A stretch of DNA of 64,000 nucleotides from Escherichia coli (GTDB taxonomy: Bacteria; Pseudomonadota; Gammaproteobacteria; Enterobacterales; Enterobacteriaceae): NCBI RefSeq assembly GCF_003019035.1, contig NZ_CP027447.1. One strand, written 5' to 3'. Under the pieces are notes generated by a model. The model saw only the letters and a program-made list of their open reading frames with translations. It ran no database searches and was not told where the DNA came from. Both the position numbers and the translations under genes were made by a program. Of this stretch, positions 13,192-30,301 are shown in pieces (position 1 is the first letter of the stretch; the number at the start of each line of letters is the position of its first letter).

Positions 13192-16304
<3,113 letters not shown>

Positions 16305-16308
16305 TCAC

Positions 16309-16376
16309 ACAACATACGAGCCGGACGCATAAAATGTAAAGCCTGGGGTGCCTAATGAGTGAGCTGACTCACATTA
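16309..16376 (-). promoter_or_regulatory. lac promoter (-10 tatgtt, -35 tttaca) and CRP/CAP site (tgtgagtcagctcact)
   Basis: Motifs read on the reverse complement; CAP half-sites TGTGA/TCACT intact, spacer differs by one base from the canonical K-12 site. Confidence 0.85.
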
Positions 16377-26998: not shown

Positions 26999-27832
26999 TC
27001 AACGCATATTCAGTTTATTGGCGTGGTACGCAATATGCTCGCCAATAAAACTGGAGACAAAATAATAGCTGTGATCATAACCCTCGTGATAACGGATTAA
27101 CGTCTTGATATTCATCTCCTGGCAGATCTTTTCAAGATTTGAAGTCCGCAGCTGTTCTGCGTAAAAATCATCACTCAACCCCTGATCAACCATTATTTCC
27201 GCAACGCGTTGACCTTGTGAAATAAGGCTCACCGGATCGTAATCCAACCAGGCTTCTTTATTTTCACCAAGATACGCGGCAAAGGCTTGCTGTCCCCACG
27301 GTACTTGCGATGGGGAGACAATGGGCGAAAACGCCGAGACGCTGGCATATTCATCTGGGTTACGTAACGCCAGCACCAGCGCGCCCAGCCCGCCCATAGA
27401 ATGACCCGATATCGACTTTCTTGCCGTTGCTGGAAAATGTTTCAGCACTAAATCTGGTAGCTCGCTGCGGATGTAGTCATACATTTTGAAATGTTCATTC
27501 CACGGCGCTTGTGTTGCGTTCAGGTAGAACCCGGCACCTTGCCCGAGATCGTAACGGTCGGCATCTGCGACATGACTGCCTCGCGGACTGGTGTCTGGCG
27601 CAACAACAATAATGTTGTGCTCCGCCGCGTAACGTTGCATCCCCGATTTAGTAATGAAATTCTGCTCGTTGCAGGTCAGGCCCGAAAGCCAGTACAGCAC
27701 CGGTAATTTTTCATTCCCGGCTTTTGGTGGGAGATAGACGCCGACATTCATTTCACATTTCAGTGATTGGGAATAATGCCGATACACATTTTGCCAGCCG
27801 CCAAAGCTGGCATGTTTTTCAATGAGTTCCAT
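26999..27832 (-). CDS. frmB: S-formylglutathione hydrolase (esterase D family)
   Basis: 277-aa ORF with GHSMGG serine-hydrolase motif. Confidence 0.95.
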   Translation of the reverse strand: MELIEKHASFGGWQNVYRHYSQSLKCEMNVGVYLPPKAGNEKLPVLYWLSGLTCNEQNFITKSGMQRYAAEHNIIVVAPDTSPRGSHVADADRYDLGQGAGFYLNATQAPWNEHFKMYDYIRSELPDLVLKHFPATARKSISGHSMGGLGALVLALRNPDEYASVSAFSPIVSPSQVPWGQQAFAAYLGENKEAWLDYDPVSLISQGQRVAEIMVDQGLSDDFYAEQLRTSNLEKICQEMNIKTLIRYHEGYDHSYYFVSSFIGEHIAYHANKLNMR

Positions 27833-27923: not shown

Positions 27924-29063
<1,140 letters not shown>

Positions 29064-29067
29064 TCAG

Positions 29068-29343
29068 CTATTTAAGATAGGCACGAACCAGTTCAATAGT
29101 GTCGTCAACGGATTGGCTGACTTCGCGGCTGTAGCAGTCATTTCGGTCAAACGTTTCCCGGATATGGCTTTCAAGCACTTCTGCCATCAGCCCGTTAGCC
29201 GCGCCCCGAACGGCAGCGATCTGTTGGAGTATGGCACGGCATTCGGCATCACCCTCCAGCGACCGTTCCAGAGCATCAATTTGCCCCCGAATACGACGAA
29301 CTCGAGTAAGGACCTTTTTCTTCTCTTCCGGAGTACTGGGCAT
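29068..29343 (-). CDS. frmR: formaldehyde-responsive repressor, CsoR/RcnR family
   Basis: 91 aa from [21 protein letters not shown]...; first gene of frmRAB. Confidence 0.93.
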
Positions 29344-29367
29344 TTCGCACCTCATCATCTGCACGCA

Positions 29368-29420
29368 ATATACTATAGGGGGGTATGCTATATGTCAATG
29401 CATACCCCCCTATAGTATAT
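29368..29420 (-). promoter_or_regulatory. Perfect 21-bp inverted repeat (atatactataggggggtatgc / gcatacccccctatagtatat, 11-bp spacer) 25 bp upstream of frmR; candidate FrmR operator with G/C tract
   Basis: Exact inverted repeat read in sequence; CsoR/RcnR-family repressors bind G/C-tract operators. Confidence 0.7.
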
Positions 29421-29497
29421 AACACTGGAGAATAAAATTTATCCGGTGAATGTAGTCGGATAACAAAAAGGAAAGAGGGGCCTAATCGACAGGGAAG

Positions 29498-29519
29498 GCC
29501 GCCCCGGATAGCGGGCGGC
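29498..29519 (-). terminator. GC-rich hairpin (gccgccc..gggcggc) downstream of yaiO
   Basis: 7-bp perfect stem followed on the minus-strand transcript by a T-rich run. Confidence 0.5.
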
Positions 29520-29527
29520 AGAAGCAA

Positions 29528-30301
29528 TCAGAATTTCCAGGTCAGATGGGCTGCAAGTTGCAGACCGTTATAATCATCGGTTGGGGTGTCGTACCACACT
29601 TTACCTGCCGTCAGCCCGAGATTAAGTTGCTCAGTCAGCGGTTGAATACGTTGCAGACTGACGCTCTTCATGCTGCCGTAGCGTGTTTCTGGCGTCCAGT
29701 CATAGGTGTAAGCGCCTGTTCCGCGGCTTAGCCATAGTTGCGTATAACCAGTGCCGCGCGGGTCATTCAGACGCACGGAAATCATATTGCTGTAACTACC
29801 ACCTGCATCGCTGGAGTCATAATGGGTATAGCGGTAGCTGGAGATCACCGGGCCAGTATAGAGGGATACGCCGCCTTGCCAGGCATCGACTTCGACATCA
29901 TCGTAATATTTAGTGTAGCGATAACCGGTCGTGAAAAGCGTTTTTGGCAACAGGGCCAGGTTAATATCCTGACGAAAATCCTGGCGGGCAAAGACCGGCG
30001 TATTATCCGCAAAGGCAATACCCGTTCGGGTTGTCAGCCAGTTATTCCATTTATACCAGACCGCACCCTGACCGCGAGTGGCATTGAAATGTTCAGTTTC
30101 ATAATCACGACGCCCCTGGGAAAGATTAAAAAGCAGCGTTGCGTTTTCAACTTTCGCCACCAGTTCAGCATACGCTAAATTACGATTGCCATGATCGCCA
30201 GAATAATCGGTAAAATCGTAGCCCGCGGTAATGGAAGTTAACCCGGCATAAGCGGGCAATGTGCTAAAAATGGCCGCCGCTAATAACGTCCGTTTTATCA
30301 T
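29528..30301 (-). CDS. yaiO: outer-membrane beta-barrel protein YaiO
   Basis: 257-aa ORF with signal peptide and C-terminal aromatic residue (…HLTWKF). Confidence 0.9.
   Translation of the reverse strand: MIKRTLLAAAIFSTLPAYAGLTSITAGYDFTDYSGDHGNRNLAYAELVAKVENATLLFNLSQGRRDYETEHFNATRGQGAVWYKWNNWLTTRTGIAFADNTPVFARQDFRQDINLALLPKTLFTTGYRYTKYYDDVEVDAWQGGVSLYTGPVISSYRYTHYDSSDAGGSYSNMISVRLNDPRGTGYTQLWLSRGTGAYTYDWTPETRYGSMKSVSLQRIQPLTEQLNLGLTAGKVWYDTPTDDYNGLQLAAHLTWKF

Follow-up and report, generated by a model that had tools for sequence, protein, structure and literature searches.

What is the function of the long perfect inverted repeat that lies immediately upstream of frmR in Escherichia coli, and which of its features matter for that function? 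The repeat falls within the 64,000-nucleotide stretch of contig NZ_CP027447.1 (assembly GCF_003019035.1) that was analysed here as a whole, hereafter the window, and RefSeq has no annotated feature beneath it. A repeat search placed one arm, ATATACTATAGGGGGGTATGC, at 29368–29388 and the other, GCATACCCCCCTATAGTATAT, at 29400–29420, the two being 100% complementary and 11 nt apart, exactly the perfect 21-bp palindrome with an N11 spacer that had been noticed from the letters alone. On the sense strand the order towards frmR is ATATACTATAGGGGGGTATGC, ATTGACATATA, GCATACCCCCCTATAGTATAT, TGCGTGCAGATGATGAGGTGCGAA and then the ATG, with frmR beginning 25 nt downstream of the repeat. Allowing up to three mismatches, the arm sequence had no match in the 64-kb window other than these two and none in 100 dinucleotide-preserving shuffles, and the repeat is the longest, the top-ranked and the sole perfect close inverted repeat of the window.

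Each arm contains one 17-bp unit of the form ATAC-N9-GTAT with a G/C tract (Table 1). This pattern has exactly two matches in the window, one in each arm, and the pattern search of the 64 kb found no further FrmR unit site. The units are oriented as mirror images with their centres 32 bp apart (31 bp according to Denby et al., 2016; PMC5146963), a distance of about three helical turns that sets them on roughly the same side of the double helix. The repeat is a type I operator of the CsoR/RcnR family, belonging to the E. coli frmRAB promoter: each unit consists of a G6/C6 run between ATA...TAT flanks, the promoter holding the repeat drives an operon with a gene for a PF02583 (DUF156) repressor, and the motif is conserved upstream of orthologous regulators (69 of 80 loci, see below). 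The sequence-only reading had proposed it as the candidate operator of FrmR, an assignment that we confirm and that is already in print (Denby et al., 2016, PMC5146963; Osman et al., 2016, Fig. 2D, PMC5016687). Its further remark that the G/C tracts are typical of CsoR/RcnR-family sites stands as far as a type I operator with a G/C tract goes, but does not extend to the G6/C6 runs, which are not conserved; likewise, the single long palindrome that it took for the operator is present, but the functional unit is a pair of mirrored 17-bp sites, and many relatives have one unit.

A promoter scan of positions 29250–29600 returned a single sigma-70-like promoter, TTGACA-17-TAGTAT, on the minus strand. 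In genomic SELEX the RpoD holoenzyme bound between frmR and yaiO, with TTGACA-15-TATAGT listed for frmRAB (Shimada et al., 2014); the −35 hexamers of the two assignments are identical, and the SELEX −10 lies two bases further upstream. A literature search for an experimentally mapped frmRAB start found just this SELEX promoter assignment. The repeat had been described as lying between the promoter and the frmR start codon, a placement that does not hold, since the −35 hexamer occupies the spacer between the arms and the −10 lies inside the proximal arm. Because the repeat both overlaps and embeds the core promoter, repression would proceed by promoter occlusion and not by a roadblock. The predicted transcription start is just downstream of the proximal arm, and the repeat would therefore be absent from the frmRAB mRNA. 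A divergent plus-strand promoter built on the distal arm's mirrored TATAGT was also considered and rejected, as the scan of 29250–29600 found none and the plus strand reads ATATGT where its −35 would be.

Table 1. Positions of the inverted repeat, the FrmR units, the promoter elements and the neighbouring genes, numbered from the first nucleotide of the window.
Feature	Position	Strand	Description
Whole inverted repeat	29368..29420		21-nt arms and 11-nt spacer, centre 29394
Distal FrmR unit	29402..29418	-	Sense strand ATAC-TATAGGGGG-GTAT; 3 nt upstream of the −35; from pattern match and the type I definition of Denby et al. (2016)
Proximal FrmR unit	29370..29386	-	Sense strand ATAC-CCCCCTATA-GTAT; covers promoter spacer and −10 hexamer; a unit is conserved here at 69 of 80 frmR loci
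−35 hexamer TTGACA	29393..29398	-	Perfect consensus, within the 11-nt spacer between the arms; from promoter scan
−10 region	29370..29377	-	TAGTAT 29375–29370 (17-nt spacing) or TATAGT 29377–29372 (15-nt spacing); both inside the proximal arm
Predicted transcription start	29363..29365	-	Predicted from the repeat centre at −29 (Denby et al., 2016), which gives 29365, and from the distance to the −10
Shine-Dalgarno-like GAGGTG	29348..29353	-	4 nt before the frmR ATG; invariant in Escherichia
frmR	29068..29343	-	91 aa, CsoR/RcnR-family repressor; Pfam PF02583, E = 3e-23; RefSeq annotation frmR
frmA	27924..29033	-	S-(hydroxymethyl)glutathione dehydrogenase, alcohol dehydrogenase domains; second gene of the operon
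frmB	26999..27832	-	S-formylglutathione hydrolase with an esterase fold; third operon gene; name follows the described frmRAB operon
yaiO	29528..30301	-	Upstream of the repeat, same strand as frmR

The binding and release of FrmR at this promoter are documented. Denby et al. (2016; Sci Rep 6:38879, Fig. 6a; PMC5146963) described a large inverted repeat centred at −29 as tandem FrmR sites, with two 9-bp G/C-rich tracts flanked by ATAC and GTAT in the frmRAB promoter, and reported a Kd of ~220 nM for FrmR on a PCR fragment of Pfrm (the fragment and not the isolated repeat) versus ~3600 nM on control promoter DNA. In the same study formaldehyde abolished the binding of FrmR to Pfrm and dissociated complexes that had already formed, whilst in vitro transcription of frmRAB was repressed by FrmR and this repression was reversed by formaldehyde. 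The E. coli and Salmonella frm promoters have been aligned with their G/C tracts and T/A-rich repeats marked, and mutation of one T/A-rich flank of the Salmonella operator abolished FrmR binding (Osman et al., 2016; PMC5016687). The 33-bp operator of Salmonella accommodates two FrmR tetramers (Osman et al., 2015, 2016), and the FrmR-controlled promoter of this organism is reported to respond in cells to formaldehyde and not to metals.

The frm promoter is already in use as a formaldehyde biosensor and in synthetic methylotrophy. Rohlhill and colleagues reportedly located two 19-bp repressor sites in it, the first lying upstream of the −35 and the second over the −10, positions that would match the two arms. 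As described by the papers that cite it, the sort-seq saturation mutagenesis of E. coli Pfrm placed the repressor-binding sites in palindromic regions (Rohlhill et al., 2017). The checks that had been proposed for the repeat are in this way largely in the literature already, binding with and without formaldehyde in Denby et al. (2016) and promoter mutagenesis, as relayed by those citing papers, in Rohlhill et al. (2017).

With high confidence we explain the repeat as a whole by two mirrored type I sites laid over the frmRAB promoter, at which occupancy by FrmR represses transcription and formaldehyde releases it. When formaldehyde is absent, FrmR tetramers would occupy both sites in E. coli, most likely one per site, a stoichiometry transferred by analogy from Salmonella, whose FrmR is 52% identical to that of E. 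coli, falls in a polyphyletic subgroup (Osman et al., 2016; PMC5016687) and acts on a different operator. FrmR on the DNA would block RNA polymerase from the core promoter, and this occlusion would repress frmR itself, by autoregulation, together with frmA and frmB. Formaldehyde cross-links Pro2 of FrmR to Cys35 and so reshapes the DNA-binding face, whereupon FrmR leaves the DNA and the strong TTGACA promoter fires. The exact bases that FrmR contacts within the units we infer.

The variation of the repeat among Escherichia strains indicates which parts of it are constrained. A 261-bp stretch around the repeat, flanked by the annotated genes frmR and yaiO, has matches in 5415 of the 5426 complete E. 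coli genomes, and the 57-bp stretch that holds the repeat is found in 5363 of them, at a median of one and a maximum of two places per genome. The 57-bp stretch is unchanged in 3554 of these 5363 genomes and differs at one or two positions in 1806. About 60 E. coli genomes have the frmR region and lack a megablast match to the 57-bp stretch; a few carry two copies, and two of the matching places are on plasmids. Escherichia shows no variation in the −35, in the TATAGTAT segments or in the flanks ATAC and GTAT. Variation does occur at the inner GC of the arm, which reads GA in K-12 C600 and TC in strain FORC_044; relative to K-12 the window strain has a single base change, located at the proximal arm's inner edge, and the Pfrm of Denby et al. 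(2016; PMC5146963), the same locus and repeat, accordingly has GA for GC in K-12 where the palindrome is perfect over 21 nt here. FORC_044 further has G5 in place of G6, and E. albertii has TCCCC for CCCCC. As the ATAC/GTAT flanks are kept whilst the G6/C6 runs and the outer and inner bases of the arms vary, the conserved entity is the 17-bp unit; judged from these sequences, the 'perfect 21-bp' length and the G6/C6 runs characterise this lineage and are not requirements.

Beyond the distal arm the strains diverge. Their homology breaks at ~29435–29447, 15–27 bp past the arm, and the upstream neighbour is yaiO in the window strain and K-12, fbpC in FORC_044 (L002) and a divergent tauA in E2348/69 (L003); the frmRAB promoter therefore lies at the edge of a junction of variable gene content. 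On the far side, a G+C-rich hairpin without a T-run, GCCGCCC...GGGCGGC, occupies 29497–29520 directly after the yaiO stop codon, and a poly-C tract at ~29472–29482 varies by strain, being CCCC here and longer in K-12 and ETEC1717.

To follow the operator beyond Escherichia, a scan of 100,044 species genomes for FrmR yielded 80 loci from gamma-, beta- and alpha-proteobacteria, and the 130 nt upstream of each were analysed for ATAC-N9-GTAT with at most one mismatch. The unit was present within these 130 nt at 69 of the 80 frmR loci, with a density of 9.4 per kb upstream versus 0.155 per kb across the other 245 kb of locus sequence, a ~61-fold difference. The consensus of 33 distinct proximal units is ATACTCCCCTATAGTAT, in which positions 5–9 are C-rich and the 3' half resembles TATAGTAT, whilst the ATAC/GTAT flanks are invariant in the position counts as a consequence of how the search was built. 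Other genera have a tract of GTGGAG, GTGGGG and similar, and not G6. Two architectures recur. In Escherichia, Pantoea, Edwardsiella, Enterobacter, Providencia, Aeromonas, Erwinia, Serratia, Morganella and Deefgea two units flank TTGAC and the proximal one carries the −10, the distal unit being present in 18 two-site loci; in Brucella/Ochrobactrum-type and many other alpha- and beta-proteobacterial loci a single unit directly follows TTGAC and fills the promoter spacer. TTGAC does not vary in Escherichia, and other Enterobacterales keep it between their two units. Whatever the architecture, the unit overlaps core promoter elements (TTGAC and −10-like), which argues for repression by occlusion.

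Several details of the loci stand beside this pattern. Among the two-site loci (L005–L027) the distance from one unit to the other is 32 bp for Escherichia and Deefgea, increases to 33 bp in Erwinia and reaches 34–35 bp in the other Enterobacterales and Aeromonas. In Erwinia endophytica (L020) the units, ~79 and 46 nt upstream of frmR, align as direct repeats (15/17 identical) as against 10/17 when inverted, so a large palindrome is not universal in two-site frm promoters. The frmR upstream regions of an Edwardsiella plasmid, Enterobacter and Morganella (L012, L014, L022) are near-identical despite the genera being unrelated, as are those of a second group, Citrobacter, Klebsiella and Maribrevibacterium (L010, L013, L015), in which the distal site has a centre of 10 bp, not 9 bp (GTATACTACATGGGAGGTATAC); this near-identity points to frm cassettes that move horizontally. 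In Thermomonas, Lysobacter and other Lysobacteraceae/Xanthomonadaceae (L034, L038–L040, L057, L060, L082) TATACTCCCCCCCACTATG adjoins the matched ATG, so that the unit (with CTAT for GTAT) overlaps the start codon; these loci either produce transcripts with almost no leader or have their true start codon at another position.

Of the other ways to read the repeat, the one that survives best has both arms gripped by a single FrmR tetramer, or a higher-order complex, through two opposite faces, which would make the repeat one composite operator with the intervening 15 bp, including the −35, looped or wrapped. Denby et al. (2016; PMC5146963) raise this arrangement on the grounds that the centres are ~31 bp apart, compared with 19 bp for RcnR; the 32 bp measured here leaves both units on roughly the same helical face, and the arms remain mirror images in several lineages despite differing central bases. 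We nevertheless regard it as improbable. The range of 32–35 bp among the two-site genera corresponds to ~100 degrees of rotation, the Erwinia units are direct, just one unit is present at most loci of alpha- and beta-proteobacteria, and Salmonella FrmR and E. coli RcnR both place two tetramers on each operator; moreover, a 15-bp loop between two faces of a small tetramer would be sterically demanding.

Related to this is the question of whether the mirror pairing of the units is in itself functional and actively maintained. The arms have a mirror identity of 17/17 in Escherichia and in the Edwardsiella/Enterobacter/Morganella type and of 16/17 in Aeromonas, and both arms change together, with G6 in Escherichia, GTGGAG in the Edwardsiella type and GTGGGG in Aeromonas. 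Such co-variation could come from one FrmR assembly that clamps both units and hides the −35, or from hairpin-templated correction that keeps the arms identical. We give a maintained pairing roughly the same small chance as the single gripping complex; the alternative is two independent sites.

Two mirrored FrmR sites over the promoter, the reading that we prefer, can be set against the operators of related repressors. The sites of RcnR between rcnR and rcnA of E. coli, TACT-G6-N-AGTA (Iwig and Chivers, 2009, as cited in Denby et al., 2016), are likewise type I, with a G tract beside an AT-rich inverted repeat; as given in that citation they share the 17-bp frame, as ATACT-N7-AGTAT, the presence of a pair of sites in each promoter and a repressor that is a PF02583 paralogue, and they differ in lying 19 bp apart, as against 32 bp, and in responding to Ni/Co and not to formaldehyde. 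In the frm operator, unlike the RcnR sites, the −35 hexamer lies between the sites. The Salmonella Typhimurium frmRA operator resembles that of E. coli in its C6 tract, in its need for T/A-rich inverted-repeat flanks, in being bound by FrmR and in release by formaldehyde; it differs in that its sequence is distinct and forms one 33-bp site for the two tetramers, with no large mirrored pair. The single-unit frmR operators that the present scan brought to light in Brucella/Ochrobactrum and in further alpha- and beta-proteobacteria have the same 17-bp unit, ATACTCCCC(C/T)ATAGTAT, over the core promoter as in E. coli; unlike E. coli they have one unit, which fills the spacer after TTGAC and does not carry the −10 at its 3' end.

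The likeness to RcnR sites raises the reading that the repeat is bound mainly by another regulator, such as this paralogue: (A)TACT-N7-AGTA(T) is similar to ATAC-N9-GTAT and has the same 17-bp geometry, and the commonest bases of the proximal units are ATACTCCCCTATAGTAT. This is very unlikely, given that Pfrm is specifically bound by FrmR and repressed by it in vitro with relief by formaldehyde (Denby et al., 2016), that the Salmonella FrmR promoter is reported to respond in cells to formaldehyde and not to metals, and that the motif co-occurs with frmR homologues.

The repeat could also be seen as a nucleic acid structure, either a DNA cruciform or, in RNA, a hairpin that stops read-through from yaiO or insulates against it. 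Folded as single-stranded DNA it forms a perfect 21-bp stem at −21.5 kcal/mol (z = −7.4 against shuffles), and yaiO lies upstream on the same strand, so that read-through would transcribe the repeat. Neither arm is followed by a T-run, however, what comes next being TGCGTGC (minus strand) and AACACTG (plus strand), and a scan of 29250–29600 for intrinsic terminators found none. No Rfam 15 family reached its gathering score, the best match scoring 26.8 bits against a threshold of 90 and all matches being to generic miRNA hairpin models. Furthermore, the repeat stays with frmR where fbpC or the divergent tauA takes the place of yaiO, single-unit relatives lack the hairpin, and the predicted frmRAB start is downstream of the repeat. 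A structural role is accordingly as doubtful as binding mainly by another regulator. Least likely of all is that the repeat serves as a recombination site or represents the end or a relic of a mobile element, for although strain homology breaks 15–27 bp beyond the distal arm next to three different neighbours, the break is outside the repeat, and the unit motif follows frmR across proteobacterial classes, which ties it to the regulator. A dispersed repeat (REP, MITE or IS end) was excluded separately, the repeat being the sole copy in the window and having a median of one copy per E. coli genome.

The operator, the repressor, the effector chemistry and the promoter have all been published and are already known. 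What the present analysis contributes is a corrected geometry, in which the operator embeds both the −35 and the −10, a narrowing of the constraint to the 17-bp ATAC-N9-GTAT unit as opposed to the G6 run or the full 21-nt arm, and a cross-phylum footprint of one- and two-unit architectures that could help in transferring FrmR sensors into new hosts.

The second-ranked inverted repeat of the window belongs to the lac promoter/operator O1 region at 16240–16360 on the minus strand, which reads tttaca...tatgtt, then AATTGTGAGCGGATAACAATT and then the lacZ start ATGACTATGATTACGG. This lac region appears to differ from that of K-12 at a few bases.
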